IMG/VR virus record: IMGVR_UViG_2663763280_000006
DNA length: 5,198 nucleotides
Strand: one strand, 5' to 3'
Origin: a virus
Taxonomy: Duplodnaviria; Heunggongvirae; Uroviricota; Caudoviricetes
The translations under genes were made by a program, and so were the position numbers. Shown piece by piece: positions 1 through 4,539 of the stretch (positions are counted from its first letter, which is position 1; the number at the start of each line of letters is the position of its first letter). Below the pieces are notes generated by a model. The model ran no database searches. It had not been told where the DNA came from and saw only the letters and a program-made list of their open reading frames with translations.

Positions 1-36
1 GGTATTCACTGATATTTTCTGCATTCTGCATCAGTT

Positions 37-429
37 TTGCGGCGGCAGAGTCACNGNNANNGNNGCGCGNTNGATCAGCGAGCGCTTGGCGTTAATCGAG
101 TGAAGATATTCGAACGCTGGAAGGCTATCGACACTAGGGATAAGCGTGAAAAGTTCACGGCGCTAGTGCCTGCAATTATGGAGGCTATCCGGATTAATGA
201 TTTCAGGTTGTATCGTGAAATTAGTGACGGAAAAAGCATCACGTACATGATCGCCGGGTTAAACAAAGAATATGGCGATGTGGTGGAGTCCGGACTGCTT
301 TTTGCTGATCCTGCCGTAGTGGATCGTGAAACTGACGAACTTATAGAAAAAGCAATTGCTTTCAAACTTGCGTATCGACAGCAATACCAACAAAAAGCTG
401 GATGGAATTATGAGCCTTCTTTTTGCTGA
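37..429 (+). CDS. Hypothetical phage early-region protein; 5' end uncertain (ORF opens with TTG at 37, possible GTG at 100, first ATG at 178; N run at 55-72 sits inside the frame)
   Basis: 130-codon open frame after an in-frame TGA at 10-12. Translation is protein-like (mixed composition). The 3' end overlaps the start of the replication gene, as is common in phage operons. No clear Shine-Dalgarno for any candidate start, and the ambiguous bases prevent a firm start call. No family recognised. Confidence 0.4.
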   Translation: MRRQSHXXXXAXDQRALGVNRVKIFERWKAIDTRDKREKFTALVPAIMEAIRINDFRLYREISDGKSITYMIAGLNKEYGDVVESGLLFADPAVVDRETDELIEKAIAFKLAYRQQYQQKAGWNYEPSFC

Positions 430-1375
430 ACGCCCACTGGTTATAAACACACAGCTTGCGATGAAGATTGGCTTAAATGAAGCCATTGTGTTGCAGCAGT
501 TGCATTACTGGTTGAGAGATACCAATTCCGGCATGGAATGTGATGGTGTTCGCTGGATTTACAACACAACGGAACAATGGCTGGAACAGTTCCCATTCTG
601 GTCAGAGTCAACTTTAAAGCGCGCGTTTGCAAGTCTGAAAACGCTGGGGCTTTTGCGTTGTGAAAAGCTCAATAAATCAAAGCGCGATATGACCAATTTC
701 TACACGATCAACTATGGGAGCGAGCTTTTAGATGGTGGCAAATTGAACGAATCCATCGGTTCAAAATGCGCCGCTCCATCAGGTCAAAATGACACGATGG
801 AAGAGGTCAAAATGAAACGCTCCATTGGTTCAAAACGACCCAATGTCATCGGGTCAAAATGGCCTGATGATCTTACAGAGAATACAACAGAGATTACTAC
901 AGAGAATAAAAACACTTTTCGTCCGGAAGCTTCGCAACCGGACCCGCAGACCGCTGAACAGGATTTTTTAACCCAGAACCCCGACGCGGTTGTGTTTAGT
1001 GCGAAAAAACGCCAGTGGGGTAGCAGGGAGGATTTGGCGTGTGCGCAGTGGATTTGGGGGCGGATCGTGAACCTTTACGAACAGGCTGCCAGCGACGATG
1101 GAGAGATCATGCGACCAAAAGAGCCTAACTGGACAGCCTGGGCCAATGACGTGCGCACAATGCGGATGCTGGATGGCAGAAGCCACAGACAAATTTGCGA
1201 AATGTTTGGTCGGGTACAGCGAGATCCATTCTGGGTAAAAAACATCATGAGCCCGTCAAAACTCCGCGAAAAATGGGACGAACTGGTCATCCGCTTGGGA
1301 CGTTCACCTGTACAGCGTTGTGTGAATCATATTTCTGAACCGGATACAGAAATTCCGCCTGGTTTCAGGGGATAA
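410..1375 (+). CDS. Phage replication initiation protein: N-terminal origin-binding (O-like / replisome-organiser) region fused to a DnaT-like C-terminal domain
   Basis: Long ORF (track 356-1375 opens with TTG; first ATG at 410 gives MSLLFAERPL...). The C-terminus ...SEPDTEIPPGFRG closely matches my recollection of the E. coli DnaT C-terminus (...SEPDSQIPPGFRG). The interdomain linker is encoded by the iteron repeats, as in lambda O where ori lies inside the gene. Stop TAA at 1373-1375. Start codon is uncertain (356 vs 410). Confidence 0.8.
   Translation: MSLLFAERPLVINTQLAMKIGLNEAIVLQQLHYWLRDTNSGMECDGVRWIYNTTEQWLEQFPFWSESTLKRAFASLKTLGLLRCEKLNKSKRDMTNFYTINYGSELLDGGKLNESIGSKCAAPSGQNDTMEEVKMKRSIGSKRPNVIGSKWPDDLTENTTEITTENKNTFRPEASQPDPQTAEQDFLTQNPDAVVFSAKKRQWGSREDLACAQWIWGRIVNLYEQAASDDGEIMRPKEPNWTAWANDVRTMRMLDGRSHRQICEMFGRVQRDPFWVKNIMSPSKLREKWDELVIRLGRSPVQRCVNHISEPDTEIPPGFRG
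752..861. repeat. Iteron array (candidate phage origin of replication) inside the replication initiator gene
   Basis: Five direct repeats with core TCCATCRGKTCAAAATG ending at 768, 791, 814, 837 and 861 (period 23, 23, 23, 24 bp, about two helical turns). In-frame they encode a repeated (S)IGSK peptide. The arrangement mirrors ori-lambda within gene O. Confidence 0.65.
874..912. repeat. A-rich 12-bp-period direct repeats (TACAGAGAWTA x3) immediately downstream of the iterons; candidate origin unwinding region
   Basis: Repeats at about 874-884, 886-896 and 898-908, followed by AATAAAAACAC. AT-rich relative to surrounding coding sequence. Position next to the iterons parallels the AT-rich segment of ori-lambda. 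Confidence 0.4.
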
Positions 1376-1415
1376 GTGTTGATTTCAGGTCATGAGGTAA
1401 TTTTAAGGAGGACTT

Positions 1416-1838
1416 GTGGCAAAAGTTTTTACACAGGAAGAGCGGGAAAAAATTAAAGAGCAGGTGGTCGAACTTGTGCGCCAGAGCGGTCGCGAGACAT
1501 TACGACAGTTGGAAGCTAAAACAGGTGCGACAAGATATCTGATGAGCATTCTTGCCAGAGAGCTGGTTGCCAGTGGTTATGTATACAACTCCGGCTACGG
1601 GTTATTCCCGTCTGAACAGGCACGAAAGGACTGGCAAAATGCCCGCAAAAAACTCTCTAGGGCGAAGGTGAAGAAACCCGCTGTGGTTGATCCGGACCTT
1701 ATCTGGTCACTACCTGATGGAGAAATACGTCGCTACGACAGTCGTCTAAACATAATCTGTCGCGAGTGCCAGAAGAGCGAAGTTATGCAGCGCATATTGT
1801 CGTTTTATCAGGGAAATGTTCGGTATCTATTTAAGTGA
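1416..1838 (+). CDS. Hypothetical phage protein (140 aa), possible helix-turn-helix segment
   Basis: GTG start at 1416 preceded by a strong SD (AAGGAGG, 1405-1411). Phage-like GC and E. coli-like codon usage. Stop TGA at 1836-1838. No family recognised; the segment TLRQLEAKTGATRYLMSILAREL is HTH-like but weak. Confidence 0.6.
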   Translation: MAKVFTQEEREKIKEQVVELVRQSGRETLRQLEAKTGATRYLMSILARELVASGYVYNSGYGLFPSEQARKDWQNARKKLSRAKVKKPAVVDPDLIWSLPDGEIRRYDSRLNIICRECQKSEVMQRILSFYQGNVRYLFK

Positions 1839-2155
1839 CGAGATTAAAGTGCATTAGTTAAGATGTAAATTGACATTTTCATGGCATAGGGTAGAGGTAG
1901 CGTGGTTGTCTGCTTTGTGCCATGAACTGATGTCGCTTGTGTGCGTGGCAATTAGTGTATAACGGATATCATCAGACTCCAGCAGTAGCATTGCTTGAGC
2001 ATACTAACATATGAAATCTTTAGTTAACGTAAGATAAATTAGATTTAGTATTTTTTTGAGTATGAGCTCATAAATAATCAAAAAAACTTGATACGCCATA
2101 TGACTTTGATTTATTTTGGAAAAACATAAAGGTAATGTAATGTAAAGAGGAAAAT
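1839..2155 (+). promoter_or_regulatory. AT-rich 317-bp intergenic region upstream of the NTPase gene; presumed promoter/operator region
   Basis: Sharp drop in GC right after the stop of the 140-aa gene. Contains a consensus -35-like TTGACA (1870-1875) without a convincing -10, a 9-bp inverted repeat TTCATGGCA/TGCCATGAA (1878-1886 and 1917-1925), and a perfect 12-bp palindrome TATGAGCTCATA (2061-2072). Exact promoter not resolvable by eye. Confidence 0.3.
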
Positions 2156-3643
2156 GTGGACATTAGAGACTGGCTACCAGAATTTCAAGTTTCAGCAGAA
2201 ACAGATCGGGACTTACAGACCTATTTTTTTAAGCTACCGGCGATAAAGGATATTATTGAAAGTAGGGCTTGGTTGGTTCTTGGAAGAAAAGGTACTGGTA
2301 AAACAGCCATTTATGAACACCTTAGAAGAGGAAAACCAGCCAATCTCAACGGGTTTTACTCAGTATGTCTAAATTTTAGTGACTATCCATGGCCAGCCCA
2401 TCAACTTTACAAGGATGCAATGGCTGGAGAACTTTCCGCTTATCAAAAAAGTTGGATGTATCTTTTTTATATTAAGGCATTATCTAAACTTATTGAAATA
2501 AAAAATGATGCTGGAGAGACTTTAAACAAAGATCTAACGTGGGCACATAATTATATCAAAACTATCTTTGGTAGTCCCGACCCAACTCTTAGGGAGGTTT
2601 TGTTTTCAAAAATAACCAGATTAAAAACCATAAAAGGGCCCAGTGCTGGTCTTAATGAAGTATCATTGGACGCAGGTGAAATTTCGTTAGAGGAAGTTGC
2701 TGAGAATGCTCAGCTAAAGCAAAAGCTAAGAGCTAATGCTTTCACGTTGCTTACGTATTTTGAAAAAATTTTTAAAGATAACATTGGTAATGAAAAAATA
2801 ATTATCGCCCTTGACCAATTAGACGAAAACTGGCTAGAGGGGCAAATTGAAGAATATAGTAAGGTTTTAATAAATCTGCTAAATGTCTGTAGAAACATAG
2901 CATCTGATGAACGCCTCAATGATAAATTAAAAGTCATTCCCTTCCTACGAACGGATATTTATCATTCTTTGAAATTCAATGATAAAAACAAATTATTGCA
3001 AGATAGTGCTATCATAATCTCATGGAATGAAAATAATCTAAACGATATGTATTATGAGAGGATAAAGAAATACAAACCTAATGATCTCATATTAGATGAC
3101 GAAAAGGACAGATCTGGGAAAGTATTTGAGGTTTCATTCGTTAGGCAGGGGACTCCTCCATTTAAATATATATGTCGCCGTTCTTTCTTTAGGCCTAGGG
3201 ATATTATTGTCTACTTCAACAAAATTAGGGCATGTCATAAAAATAATGTCTCAGGTCTTTACACTTCCAATGAGCTTTATGAAGCTGACCGTGAAGCATC
3301 TATAAGTGTGTACAATGAGGTGATTGATGAATGGTCCAACCAATTCCCTGAAATTGAGAACTTACTAACTGTTCTTCAAACTATCCAAGTAGAAACATTC
3401 GATTTTAATGATTTTTCCGAGAAGTGCCGTAATGAATTTGCAGGTATTTCTGATGGGGTGATACGTCAATATATCAACTTCCTGTTTGATAACTCACTTA
3501 TCGGACAAAAAAAACAAGGTAGATGGGAATACGTAAGTAGTTTGCCTAACTTAAAAATTAATCTACAAAATGAGTTTAGGACACATCATGCTTTAAAATA
3601 CAGGTTGCATTTAATAGAAAGCAGACCGAGCCAAAATATTTAG
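2156..3643 (+). CDS. P-loop NTPase of unassigned family (495 aa); candidate accessory/defence gene
   Basis: GTG start at 2156 with SD AAGAGG (2145-2150). Walker A GRKGTGKT at aa 43-50 (nt 2282-2305). Walker B-like KIIIALDQLDE at aa 214-224 (nt 2795-2827); alternative acidic motif DLILDDE near aa 310-316. RPRD motif at aa 346-349. Gene is markedly AT-rich (roughly one-third GC by eye) against ~50% GC flanks. Stop TAG at 3641-3643. Confidence 0.8.
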   Translation: MDIRDWLPEFQVSAETDRDLQTYFFKLPAIKDIIESRAWLVLGRKGTGKTAIYEHLRRGKPANLNGFYSVCLNFSDYPWPAHQLYKDAMAGELSAYQKSWMYLFYIKALSKLIEIKNDAGETLNKDLTWAHNYIKTIFGSPDPTLREVLFSKITRLKTIKGPSAGLNEVSLDAGEISLEEVAENAQLKQKLRANAFTLLTYFEKIFKDNIGNEKIIIALDQLDENWLEGQIEEYSKVLINLLNVCRNIASDERLNDKLKVIPFLRTDIYHSLKFNDKNKLLQDSAIIISWNENNLNDMYYERIKKYKPNDLILDDEKDRSGKVFEVSFVRQGTPPFKYICRRSFFRPRDIIVYFNKIRACHKNNVSGLYTSNELYEADREASISVYNEVIDEWSNQFPEIENLLTVLQTIQVETFDFNDFSEKCRNEFAGISDGVIRQYINFLFDNSLIGQKKQGRWEYVSSLPNLKINLQNEFRTHHALKYRLHLIESRPSQNI

Positions 3644-3858
3644 CTTACATCCATCTCCATTAAGAAATCTTGCTATTGTTCTTATGGATCGTCTTTCTGA
3701 CTGATTTCATATTGGCGAGGTAACGGTAGTTAAGTAGAATGGCTGCGGGTGCTTGAGGCTATCTGCCTCGGGCATGAACACCAAGGGCAGATAGAGAAAA
3801 GCCCCAGTTAACATTACGCGTCCTGCAAGACGCTTAACATTAATCTGAGGCCAATTTC

Positions 3859-4071
3859 ATGCTAGACACATGTAGGTTAGCCTCTTACGTGCCGAAAGGC
3901 AAGGAGAAGCAGGCTATGAAGCAGCAAAAGGCGATGTTAATCGCCCTGATCGTCATCTGTTTAACCGTCATAGTGACGGCACTGGTAACGAGGAAAGACC
4001 TCTGCGAGGTACGAATCCGAACCGGCCAGACGGAGGTCGCTGTCTTCACAGCTTACGAACCTGAGGAGTAA
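3859..4071 (+). CDS. mok: mok-like upstream reading frame of the hok locus (70 codons; in-frame ATG 57 nt upstream of hok)
   Basis: ATG at 3859 preceded by GAGG (3847-3850); 70-codon frame ending at the hok stop. In hok/sok systems, translation of the overlapping mok frame is needed for hok translation. The frame relationship to hok is recalled from memory and not verified. Confidence 0.4.
   Translation: MLDTCRLASYVPKGKEKQAMKQQKAMLIALIVICLTVIVTALVTRKDLCEVRIRTGQTEVAVFTAYEPEE
3916..4071 (+). CDS. hok: Hok/Gef family type I toxin (51 aa), HokD/RelF-like
   Basis: Translation MKQQKAMLIALIVICLTVIVTALVTRKDLCEVRIRTGQTEVAVFTAYEPEE is a canonical Hok-family sequence: single N-terminal transmembrane helix followed by the conserved RKDLCEV..G..EVAVF..YE motif. 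SD AAGGAG (3901-3906), ATG 3916, stop TAA 4069-4071. Confidence 0.9.
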   Translation: MKQQKAMLIALIVICLTVIVTALVTRKDLCEVRIRTGQTEVAVFTAYEPEE

Positions 4072-4139
4072 GAGACCCGGCGAGGGAGAAATCCCTCGCC
4101 ACCTCTGATGTGGCAGGCATCCTCAACGCACCCGCACTT

Positions 4140-4171
4140 AACCCGCTTCGGCGGGTTTTTGTTTTTATTTT
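4140..4171 (+). terminator. Rho-independent terminator downstream of hok
   Basis: Stem ACCCGC (4141-4146), loop TTCG, stem GCGGGT (4151-4156), followed by TTTTTGTTTTTATTTT. Preceded by a second stable hairpin GGCGAGGGA-GAAA-TCCCTCGCC (4079-4100), consistent with the structured 3' end of hok mRNAs. Confidence 0.7.
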
Positions 4172-4287
4172 CAACGCGTTTGAAGATCTGGACGGTGCCG
4201 GAATAGAATCAAAAATACTTAAGTAGCGCGCAGGGATAAGAGGGATGGTCCCTTAAAGGGGAGAGCTAATTATCCGGAAGGATTCTG

Positions 4288-4539
4288 ATGATGAACATCG
4301 AAGAACTGCGTAAAATTTTTTGTGAAGATGGCCTCTATGCTGTGTGCGTTGAAAATGGAAATCTTGTTAGTCATTACCGCATTATGTGTTTGCGAAAGAA
4401 TGGGGCTGCGTTAATTAATTTTGTGGATGGTCGAGTGACAGACGGATTTATCTTGCGCGAAGGTGAGTTTGTCACTTCATTACAGGCACTGAAAGAGATC
4501 GGAATAAAAGCAGGCTTTTCAGCTTTTGCAGAAGAATAA
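4288..4539 (+). CDS. rem: Rem-like small protein (83 aa) of unknown function
   Basis: ATG at 4288 with SD GGAAGGA (4276-4282). 83-aa product directly downstream of a hokD-like gene, matching the hokD-rem adjacency and length I recall for E. coli K-12 Qin prophage. The symbol rests on context and length, not a verified alignment. Confidence 0.6.
   Translation: MMNIEELRKIFCEDGLYAVCVENGNLVSHYRIMCLRKNGAALINFVDGRVTDGFILREGEFVTSLQALKEIGIKAGFSAFAEE

Follow-up and report, generated by a model that had tools for sequence, protein, structure and literature searches.

A hok/mok/sok locus of hokD/hokW type in a Qin-like lambdoid prophage, probably a complete type I toxin-antitoxin module

A small hok-like gene lies beside a P-loop ATPase gene in a stretch of caudoviral DNA of 5,198 nucleotides (record IMGVR_UViG_2663763280_000006), which is analysed here as a whole and called the window. 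Is this gene part of a complete toxin-antitoxin module, and how is it related to hokD of the Qin prophage of E. coli K-12, which follows relBE? Sequence comparison and predicted folding make it very probable that positions 3712-4171 contain all the parts of a hok/mok/sok type I module, one of hokD/hokW type situated in the early-right part of a Qin-like lambdoid prophage, and that K-12 hokD is seen here in its uninterrupted, ancestor-type form. It is an ordinary copy of a system already known from E. coli lambdoid prophages.

The 51-aa product matches the Pfam family PF01848 (HOK_GEF) over residues 6-47 with 82.9 bits (cutoff 22; E = 1.2e-23) and is 100% identical to HokD of K-12, the toxicity of which had been shown before it served as a control in the Hok survey preprint. 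The gene is annotated as hokD in identical genomes, and the DNA of the window is 100% identical to annotated hokD-rem regions in many E. coli genomes. The complete Rfam sok model (RF01794, positions 1-157) aligns with 3747-3921 at 116.6 bits (gathering score 59; E = 5.8e-27); since this match covers 175 nt and lies on the plus strand, it is read as the hok leader plus the Sok region and not as the strand of Sok. That the 51-aa reading frame and its hairpins are coincidental, being a chance frame or a misassigned family, has nothing in its favour except the small size of the frame, and it is practically ruled out by the Pfam and Rfam E values (1e-23 and 6e-27), the complete identity to annotated hokD and the fold of the mRNA (z = -8.6). 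A preliminary description of the locus, made from the letters alone, had recognised a Hok-family toxin of 51 aa, an in-frame upstream extension of 19 codons, Shine-Dalgarno (SD) sites for both frames, a GAAA-tetraloop hairpin and an intrinsic terminator; all the features it described at the hok locus are found where it placed them, and mok and hok are laid out like the annotated mokC/hokC of K-12 (Table 1).

Table 1. Coordinates of the hok/mok/sok module and of its context in the window
Feature	Position	Strand	Basis and details
Variable cargo slot, 5' of the module	~1923-3667	.	Homology with other phages/strains stops near 1922 and resumes at 3668
Sll1717-family P-loop ATPase gene, in the cargo slot	2156-3643		NCBIfam ATPase_Sll1717, 250 bits
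hok/mok mRNA promoter	3712-3740	+	-35 TTGGCG 3712-3717, 17-nt spacer, -10 TAGAAT 3735-3740; consensus scan 9/12
Full-length hok mRNA	3747-4166	+	5' end inferred at G3747; 3' end inferred at the intrinsic terminator
tac (translational activator element) GGGUGCUUGAGG	3747-3758	+	Pairs with 4121-4133 in the full-length MFE fold
ucb (upstream complementary box) AAGCCCCAG	3799-3807	+	Predicted fold
Sok antisense RNA (predicted, ~75 nt)	3867-3793	-	15-nt single-stranded 5' tail, long hairpin 3852-3800, UUUUCUCU tail
mok frame (70 codons), same frame as hok	3859-4071	+	SD GAGG 3847-3850, 8 nt before the ATG at 3859
Sok promoter	3902-3874	-	-35 TTGCCT 3902-3897, 17-nt spacer, -10 TAACCT 3879-3874; read from the sequence
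dcb (downstream complementary box) GCCUC	3880-3884	+	Predicted; pairs with mok SD GAGGC (3847-3851) in RNA truncated at 4112 or 4119
Single-copy (empty) insertion target GGAGAAGCAGGCTAT	3903-3917	.	15-mer that flanks the 3274-bp block of E. coli cq9; one copy in the window
hok toxin gene, 51 aa	3916-4071	+	SD GGAG 3903-3906, 9 nt before the ATG at 3916, 19 codons downstream of the mok ATG
3' UTR hairpin GGCGAGGGA-GAAA-TCCCTCGCC	4079-4100	+	9-bp stem, GAAA loop; sequence and MFE fold
fbi (fold-back inhibitory element) CUCAACGCACCC	4121-4133	+	Pairs with tac in the MFE fold
Intrinsic terminator	4140-4171	+	Stem-loop 4140-4157, then T-rich tail; scan: 7 pairs, 5 of them G-C
rem (context)	4288-4539	+	Annotated rem in identical genomes; near-identical to K-12 rem

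Four mechanical reading frames, at 3707-3814 (-), 3885-4049 (-), 4046-4174 (-) and 4110-4226 (+), overlie these RNA elements and were dropped for want of support; equivalents of them are annotated as hypothetical proteins in some phage records. Sub-threshold Rfam matches to isrK (25.7 bits, gathering score 50), ceN48 and rsmX were likewise discarded as hairpin or terminator look-alikes.

Among the characterised systems that were compared, hokW-sokW of the Sakai prophage Sp5 (VT2-Sakai; Takada et al. 2021, PMC8621323) has 93.8% nucleotide identity with window positions 3728-4143. Both are carried by lambdoid phages and share the leader architecture and the mok frame, and 47 of the 51 Hok residues are identical, the four that differ being C-terminal. 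The two loci differ by six substitutions where the 5' tail of Sok and the start of mok lie, and just after fbi the Sp5 sequence diverges, without the terminator of the window; its phage neighbourhood is also different, with DUF551 and YgiW where the window has DUF977, cargo genes and rem. The hok/sok (parB) locus of R1 and of R1-type IncF plasmids presents its elements in the same order as the window (promoter, tac, ucb, mok SD, Sok antisense, hok, 3' hairpin, fbi), with the Sok promoter again placed downstream of the mok start and ahead of the hok SD, although outside the short boxes the sequence similarity is only distant: HokW of Sp5, 92% identical to the Hok of the window, shares 44% identity with R1 Hok. 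The R1 system differs furthermore in being borne on a plasmid, where its role in post-segregational killing has been demonstrated, and compared with the window the R1-type loci have a longer first hairpin and a shorter Sok hairpin. In the hokC/mokC/sokC (gef) locus of K-12, mok is in frame with hok and ends at a common stop codon, as here, but an IS186 lies 23 nt from the hokC stop codon, the aligned 3' region is unlike the fbi of the window, and the sokC hairpin lacks an 18-nt insert found in the window.

The architecture of the mRNA is conserved among homologues. Seven of them, from phages or prophages, retain the -10 region of the hok/mok promoter, its aligned counterparts being TATAAT in hokC and TAGGAT in hokB, and both the Rfam model and all homologous leaders start at 3747, 7 nt 3' of it. 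The full-length mRNA folds with a minimum free energy (MFE) of -175.6 kcal/mol (z = -8.64 against shuffles), and in this structure tac and fbi form a duplex of 12 bp with one bulge, whose -21.5 kcal/mol rank first of 342 windows. Because MAFFT misaligned the R1 fbi, the conservation of this pairing was scored sequence by sequence by duplex folding: in all 8 homologues none of more than 300 windows pairs better with the first 13 nt than the 3' end does, the pairing being preserved through compensating changes in hokB and in the R1-type locus. In the full-length fold ucb is paired with the mok SD (3845-3851), and once the 3' end is removed it pairs with tac (3747-3754); the GCC/GGC core pairs of the ucb helix are kept in 7-8 of the 8 homologues. 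By thermodynamic prediction the molecule could act as a switch, the full-length RNA combining tac:fbi with ucb:SD and the RNAs truncated at 4112 or 4119 combining tac:ucb with SD:dcb; this refolding depends on the 3' end chosen, since another MFE structure is predicted for an RNA that stops at 4105. The 3' UTR hairpin is paired in 94% of cells, with 5 of its 9 pairs changed on both sides across the 8 homologues, and the terminator is found in 6 of 7 close homologues, Sp5 being the exception. Over all the named helices 89.5% of cells are paired, versus 37-46% with slid partners, and 14 pairs change on both sides, in a covariation test that comprises 8 sequences only and takes its structure from the window's own fold.

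The mok frame is maintained too. In each of the 8 homologues the frame opened by the mok ATG extends as far as the start of hok, be it as frame 0, as frame +1 or with an end one codon short of hok, and it stays open to hok even across indels. The pattern indicates that it is the translation of mok that is conserved, and not its peptide; mok translation would reach the hok start, and a translational coupling of the two frames is predicted.

The antitoxin had been expected on the minus strand at about 3800-3880, where its promoter could not be found by eye. The automatic promoter scan of the window missed it as well, because its -10 hexamer agrees with the consensus in just 3 of 6 places; comparison with the homologous sokC and sokW revealed its position. 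Its -35, spacer and -10 are identical to those of sokW in Sp5, in which the mutagenic primer YO-421 alters exactly the TAACCT hexamer, to GAGCCG, and abolishes the antitoxin activity (PMC8621323). The annotated sokC RNA of K-12 has its start at mok position +9 and a GGGGCUUUUCUCU tail at its end, which allowed us to place Sok in the window: its 5' end was set by homology with the sokC start and its 3' end by that of sokC together with the U tract. The predicted RNA folds at -30.5 kcal/mol (z = -6.1) into a 5' tail and a terminator hairpin. The equivalent stretch in Sp5 is spanned by the sokW Northern probe YO-592, and sokW RNA and hokW mRNA were both detected on Northern blots (PMC8621323). 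In the host strain of the window, both the hok mRNA and the Sok RNA are presumably made.

The model we propose is based on the mechanism of R1 hok/sok, as outlined in the summary given by PMC9841398. The moderately strong hok/mok promoter would produce a stable mRNA of about 420 nt that is closed at first: its 5' tac would be paired with fbi, which lies close to the 3' end, and the mok ribosome-binding site would be masked by ucb. The slow trimming of the 3' end would remove fbi, whereupon tac would take ucb and the mok SD would shift into a hairpin with dcb. Ribosomes translating mok would then run into the hok start and lead to the synthesis of Hok, a toxin of the inner membrane. As long as the prophage is present and quiescent, the short-lived Sok RNA would pair with the mok start region, thereby blocking translation and provoking the decay of the mRNA; when Sok synthesis stops, Hok would be made.

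How does this module relate to the hokD gene of K-12? The window is syntenic with K-12 Qin in the order dicB...hokD-rem-ydfU-Q, with DNA that from 3902 on matches K-12 hokD without a difference and remains near-identical to beyond rem, and rem follows hok as the preliminary description had noted. Its further proposal, that the ATPase gene has taken the place of relBE, does not hold: the homology with K-12 begins no earlier than 3902, which is 14 nt upstream of the hok start codon, and relBE sits elsewhere. Both positions can be seen together in E. coli cq9 and in phage PhiR42_1, which carry a methyltransferase in the cargo slot, upstream of an intact hok leader, and relBE in a separate block; relBE has therefore been inserted into the hok locus itself, and we reject the view that one and the same slot takes either relBE or the ATPase. 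In cq9 the relBE block measures 3274 bp, is bounded by IS1202-like ends with 5'-TGT...ACA-3' inverted repeats, and is bordered on both sides by a 15-bp duplication of window positions 3903-3917; its terminal inverted repeats are imperfect and were tested by anchoring at the duplication. The integration of relBE into hokD has already been published (PMC6379469). Compared with the window, K-12 hokD (relF of the relBEF operon) retains the same Hok protein, the 3' UTR hairpin, fbi, the terminator and the downstream rem-ydfU-Q genes, but lacks everything 5' of 3902, namely the hok promoter, tac, ucb, the mok start and Sok with its promoter. In K-12 this leader is replaced by relE and the right end of the IS1202-like element, so that hokD is read from the relBE promoter. 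The relBE insertion has cut hokD off from its own promoter, mok and sok, and the window is the empty-site form of the insertion locus. In the annotated context of an identical genome, relBE and the relE-hokD junction are absent from the locus of the window strain, where the full leader is found instead. Among 5426 complete E. coli genomes the junction occurs in 1167, against 4287 (~79%) with the intact leader.

The ATPase gene belongs to a different region, upstream of the module, that had been suspected to be a variable cargo slot. This suspicion is borne out by at least nine different gene sets that occupy the position in related phages and strains. The GC content of the slot is 31-38%, compared with 44-54% in its flanks, and the ATPase-hok junction is rare (43 of the 5426 genomes). 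The occupants in related phages include PD-T7-1 (521 bits), PDC-S15 (328 bits) and Hp1-3, which are known or candidate defence genes; the PADLOC match of the ATPase is weak (20.6 bits). We tentatively suggest that the interval between DUF977 and the hok promoter could be a defence-gene hotspot of Qin-like lambdoid prophages, with hok/sok as its fixed right border.

What the module does for the prophage is a separate matter, for which the retention of the prophage, help with lysis on induction and the exclusion of other phages would be the candidate roles. By analogy with hokW-sokW of Sp5, its main role could be to accelerate host lysis and phage release after induction, Sok disappearing and Hok acting at the inner membrane before the holin and the endolysin. 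We regard this as a reasonable possibility, short of an even chance. The near-identity to hokW-sokW, including the Sok promoter, speaks for it, as does the response of the Sp5 module to mitomycin C, which consists in the loss of sokW RNA, a RecA-dependent production of HokW and a phage release twice that of the deletion mutant (PMC8621323); the position of the module in the early-right operon region, with the replication genes on one side and Q on the other, also fits. On the other hand, the host prophage, which resembles the cryptic Qin, may not be inducible, an IS1 and pseudogenes lie downstream in it, and the function has been tested in one phage only, Sp5, where the genomic position differs from that in the window.

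The module might also be a silent relic, all of its elements being present but physiologically inert; Hok would never reach toxic levels from its native locus, and the module would owe its persistence to hitch-hiking in the prophage alone. Intact chromosomal copies, hokA of E. coli C, hokB of K-12 and hokC of ECOR24, are reported to show neither post-segregational killing nor a response to rifampicin in the passages of PMC7232551 and of the Hok survey preprint that deal with them. The weak -10 of Sok points in the same direction, and since complete E. coli genomes contain a median of 2 and up to 9 hok leaders, cross-protection by other Sok RNAs is conceivable. Against inertness stand the strong conservation of the module with its compensatory stem changes and the mok frame kept open across indels. 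The 94%-identical phage copy is moreover active: killing upon loss of Sok has been shown for it, and its deletion halves the release of Sp5 phage (PMC8621323). Inactive copies usually bear IS insertions or rearrangements (PMC7232551), of which the hok locus of the window is free. We consider the relic reading rather doubtful.

It seems unlikely, finally, that the module serves in abortive infection, in which a lytic phage would shut off host transcription, Sok would decay and Hok would kill the cell, the ATPase and the module together making up a two-gene defence island. The precedent is R1 hok/sok, already invoked in the preliminary description, which according to the account in PMC8621323 reduces the plating efficiency of T4 by 42% and its plaque size by about 85%; this effect is modest and was obtained from a high-copy plasmid. 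The defence genes held by the adjacent slot in related phages would agree with such a function, but the low PADLOC score of the ATPase does not favour it, and the Hok survey preprint found no enrichment of hok near defence systems.

In conclusion, these observations leave the knowledge of how hok/sok works unchanged, and their value lies mainly in annotation, since RefSeq marks the 51-aa hokD coding sequence only and leaves mok, Sok and the regulatory leader unannotated. The common form is the complete one, from which the textbook hokD of K-12 derives by truncation; the window also supplies the unoccupied target of the relBE insertion into Qin, which clarifies the co-transcription of relBE and hokD in K-12. 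Could the slot that flanks the module be a reservoir of defence functions? If so, the rare Sll1717 ATPase would be an anti-phage gene that has yet to be characterised, and the addiction module beside it might help to retain the cargo of the slot. This interval is a useful place to seek new prophage-borne defence genes.

The hok/mok/sok module carried by the window, a type I toxin-antitoxin locus whose features are collected in the table, is genuine, complete, very common and of a known kind. At 100% identity, the window (5198 bp) matches a Qin-like lambdoid prophage present in several E. coli genomes, such as that of strain 504838, in which the annotated gene order is dicB, ydfA, a dicA-like repressor, Cro/CI, YdaT, replication protein O, DUF977, a P-loop ATPase of the Sll1717 family, hokD, rem, a hypothetical gene, DUF968 (ydfU), RusA and antiterminator Q. 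Alignment with K-12 Qin reveals synteny on the hokD-rem-ydfU-ydfT side, rem following hok as the preliminary description had claimed. In phage Tritos, a hypothetical gene and an ImmA/IrrE metallopeptidase replace rem after hok (Tritos locus 3722-5478), and the downstream flank of hok is thus variable too in some phages. In the sampled RefSeq genomes, the annotation consists of the 51-aa hokD CDS only, the leader, mok and Sok (3747-3915) being bare of any feature.

Coordinates of the features of the module and its surroundings in the window
Feature	Position	Strand	Description
Ambiguous bases (N)	55-72		Unreadable stretch within the YdaT-like ORF
Stretch after the DUF977 stop	1839-1922		About 85 nt; potential conserved signal bordering the cargo slot on its left
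TTGACA	1870-1875		Inside the conserved 1839-1922
Candidate hok promoter	3712-3740		TTGGCG-17-TAGAAT, 7 nt upstream of 3747
tac (5' fold-back element)	first 12 nt from 3747		GGGUGCUUGAGG
ucb	3801-3807		Box complementary to the mok SD
mok SD	3845-3851		GAGG 8 nt ahead of the mok ATG
mok ORF	3859-4071		70 aa
Predicted Sok RNA	3867 to ~3793	minus	Free 15-nt 5' tail, long hairpin, UUUUCUCU tail
Sok -10	3879-3874	minus	TAACCT
dcb	3880-3884		Box complementary to the mok SD
Sok -35	3902-3897	minus	TTGCCT, 17-nt spacer; promoter lies between hok SD and mok start
15-mer	3903-3917		GGAGAAGCAGGCTAT, single copy
hok ORF	3916-4071		51 aa; internal ATG in the mok frame, 19 codons in; SD GGAG 9 nt ahead
Hok Tyr47 codon	4054-4057		TAC then G, within CUUACGAA; motif intact
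Hairpin	4079-4100		GAAA loop
fbi (3' fold-back element)	4121-4133		CUCAACGCACCC, complement of tac
Terminator	4140-4157		Followed by a T run
Promoter-like sequence	4180-4209		TTGAAG-18-TAGAAT, 9/12 matches; between hok terminator and rem

The 51-aa Hok-family toxin, its 19-codon in-frame mok-like extension with Shine-Dalgarno sequences, the GAAA hairpin and the intrinsic terminator, all proposed in the preliminary description, are borne out by the reading frames and the sequence, and the 70-aa and 51-aa products both match Pfam HOK_GEF (E = 1e-23). From 3902 through the 3' UTR, a single base, located in the 3' hairpin, separates the DNA from that of K-12 hokD; the encoded protein is therefore HokD. 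The in-frame mok is no oddity, since the annotated mokC and hokC of K-12 likewise have a common stop codon. The frame from the mok ATG to the hok start is open in 8/8 homologues; relative to hok it is frame 0 in the window, Sp5 (Sakai prophage 5), Tritos, PPompW and the R1-type locus, frame +1 in the P1-like locus and hokB, and in PhiR12_3 it ends one codon short of hok. In PPompW, frame 0 is held despite one -1 and one +1 indel. As judged from these sequences, the conservation of mok lies in translation across the region and not in the peptide, which fits a role of mok as a coupling leader. Concerning the Tyr47 codon of the toxin, the Hok survey preprint mentions, for the hokB, hokC, hokD and hokE mRNAs, an A-to-I editing (carried out by TadA in the case of hokB) by which a codon comes to specify Cys.

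The Rfam sok model RF01794 aligns in full with 3747-3921 (116.6 bits vs a gathering score of 59); this plus-strand match exceeds any Sok RNA in length, and we take it to represent the hok leader plus the Sok region. A sub-threshold match of 4080-4161 (3' hairpin and terminator) to the Salmonella sRNA isrK (25.7 bits vs a gathering score of 50) is most likely a two-hairpin look-alike. In alignment, the -10 of the candidate hok promoter coincides with the -10 elements of hokC and hokB. In the MFE fold of 3747-4166 (-175.6 kcal/mol, z = -8.6), the tac:fbi pairing closes the molecule. In a small set of eight sequences (the window, Sp5, Tritos, PPompW, a P1-like plasmid-phage, PhiR12_3, K-12 hokB and an R1-type IncFII plasmid), the 3' end ranks each time, out of >300 windows, as the best partner for the 5' 13 nt, and changes on both sides preserve tac:fbi in hokB and the R1-type locus. 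The named local helices, on a structure taken from the window's own fold, are 89.5% paired in this n=8 set vs 37-46% with slid partners, with both-side changes in 14 pairs. In the predicted fold of the full-length mRNA, ucb would cover the mok SD; once fbi is trimmed away (RNA ending at 4112 or 4119), tac would pair with ucb and the mok SD with dcb, which matches the published hok mRNA refolding switch (PMC9841398). Since an end at 4105 gives a different prediction, this refolding step is suggestive only. The Sp5 hokW locus departs from the window right after fbi (Sp5 2880-2935 vs window 4134-4171), without the CCCGCTTCGGCGGG terminator of the other close homologues.

The Sok antisense promoter, which the preliminary description could not locate, is now placed on the minus strand by its hexamers, by the sokC-based start and by its identity to the tested sokW promoter. 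The annotated K-12 sokC start corresponds to mok position +9, hence the predicted Sok 5' end, and the predicted RNA folds at -30.5 kcal/mol (z = -6.1). A promoter scan by consensus did not pick up the Sok promoter because it is weak by that measure, its -10 matching at only 3/6 positions. The closest studied relative, hokW-sokW of Sp5 (93.8% identity over 3728-4143), has the same -35, spacer and -10; primer YO-421 swaps exactly the sokW -10 hexamer, protection is lost in the resulting mutant and partially returns with sokW in trans, and Northern blots showed both sokW RNA and hokW mRNA, probe YO-592 covering the equivalent of 3840-3867 (PMC8621323). Among seven close homologues, 3853-3873 (Sok 5' tail and mok start) is the stretch most variable by substitution (12/21 columns; hok CDS, 10/156; tac and first hairpin, 2/49). 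Since genomes harbour a median of 2 and a maximum of 9 such hok leaders, this stretch may govern the specificity of Sok for its target where loci share a genome.

K-12 homology to the window begins at 3902, 14 nt ahead of the hok ATG, and what precedes it in K-12 is relE and a spacer. This relE-hokD junction occurs in 1167 of 5426 complete genomes, the remaining matches all starting at that same point, and the hok leader is intact in 4287 of the 5426. Both junctions are visible in E. coli cq9 and in PhiR42_1, an inducible phage: after the leader, intact up to the 3917-equivalent, come a truncated ISNCY-family transposase (HTH and rve_3), ydfW, flxA, ydfV, relB, relE and then hokD. The block, which carries relBE in K-12-type strains, spans 3274 bp, with the 15-mer as an exact direct repeat on both flanks (cq9 locus 4177-7480), and ends in imperfect inverted repeats 5'-TGT...ACA-3' (21/28 positions, reached by 0/100,000 shuffles), the right one being the final ~28 nt of the K-12 relE-hokD spacer. 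Such features agree with the IS1202 family, which has imperfect 24-26-bp TIRs with TGT/ACA ends, two HTH domains and a DDE domain, one subgroup making target duplications >15 bp (PMC10132070). With its single 15-mer, the window is the empty site. The left junction is retained in 691 genomes; K-12 appears to have lost it, since the hok leader, DUF977 and the replication genes are all absent from the K-12 Qin annotation upstream of ydfW. That relBE integrated into an ancestral form of the hokD ORF, about 70 codons long, is already reported in PMC6379469 (citing Ramisetty and Santhosh 2016).

The comparison with Qin in the preliminary description stands for the synteny and fails for the slot that relBE and the NTPase were thought to share: relBE as an alternative occupant is ruled out, its block being inserted within the hok locus at the equivalent of 3903-3917 and cq9 carrying an occupied slot and the insertion side by side, which makes them two different sites. 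That the position upstream of hok is a variable cargo slot is itself well supported. Homology with related phages and strains stops near 1922, about 85 nt past the DUF977 stop, and is back at 3668, 25 nt past the ATPase stop, and the GC content is 31-38% inside vs 44-54% outside. The interval holds PD-T7-1 (521 bits) in mEp460_ev081, an FRG-domain PDC-S15 candidate (328 bits) in Tritos, three genes matching PADLOC Hp1-Hp3 in strain VTB97448v, an HTH regulator and a GNAT acetyltransferase in Evi, a methyltransferase in HannyBb, PhiR42_1 and cq9, an alpha/beta hydrolase in strain 06-3462, two hypothetical genes in strain Z0117EC0054 and, placed from the hok side alone, a Paa/AdfO adhesin directly upstream of hok in PPompW. 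This interval has the look of a hotspot for defence or cargo genes. The stretch 1839-1922 is kept in 4/5 aligned elements with differing cargo, HannyBb being the exception. The ATPase matches NCBIfam Sll1717 (250 bits) and PADLOC only weakly, and its junction with hok occurs in 43 genomes; a defence role is a guess by location.

By homology, the module would work as those of R1 and hokW-sokW do. Help with lysis upon induction, demonstrated for Sp5 hokW-sokW (PMC8621323), and prophage retention are candidate roles. Exclusion of lytic phages is another, reported for R1 hok/sok in PMC8621323, which describes a modest effect on a high-copy plasmid. The module may also be silent in this prophage, since intact chromosomal hok loci are reported inactive in killing assays in the Hok survey preprint and PMC7232551. 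The module is the uninterrupted form of hokD.
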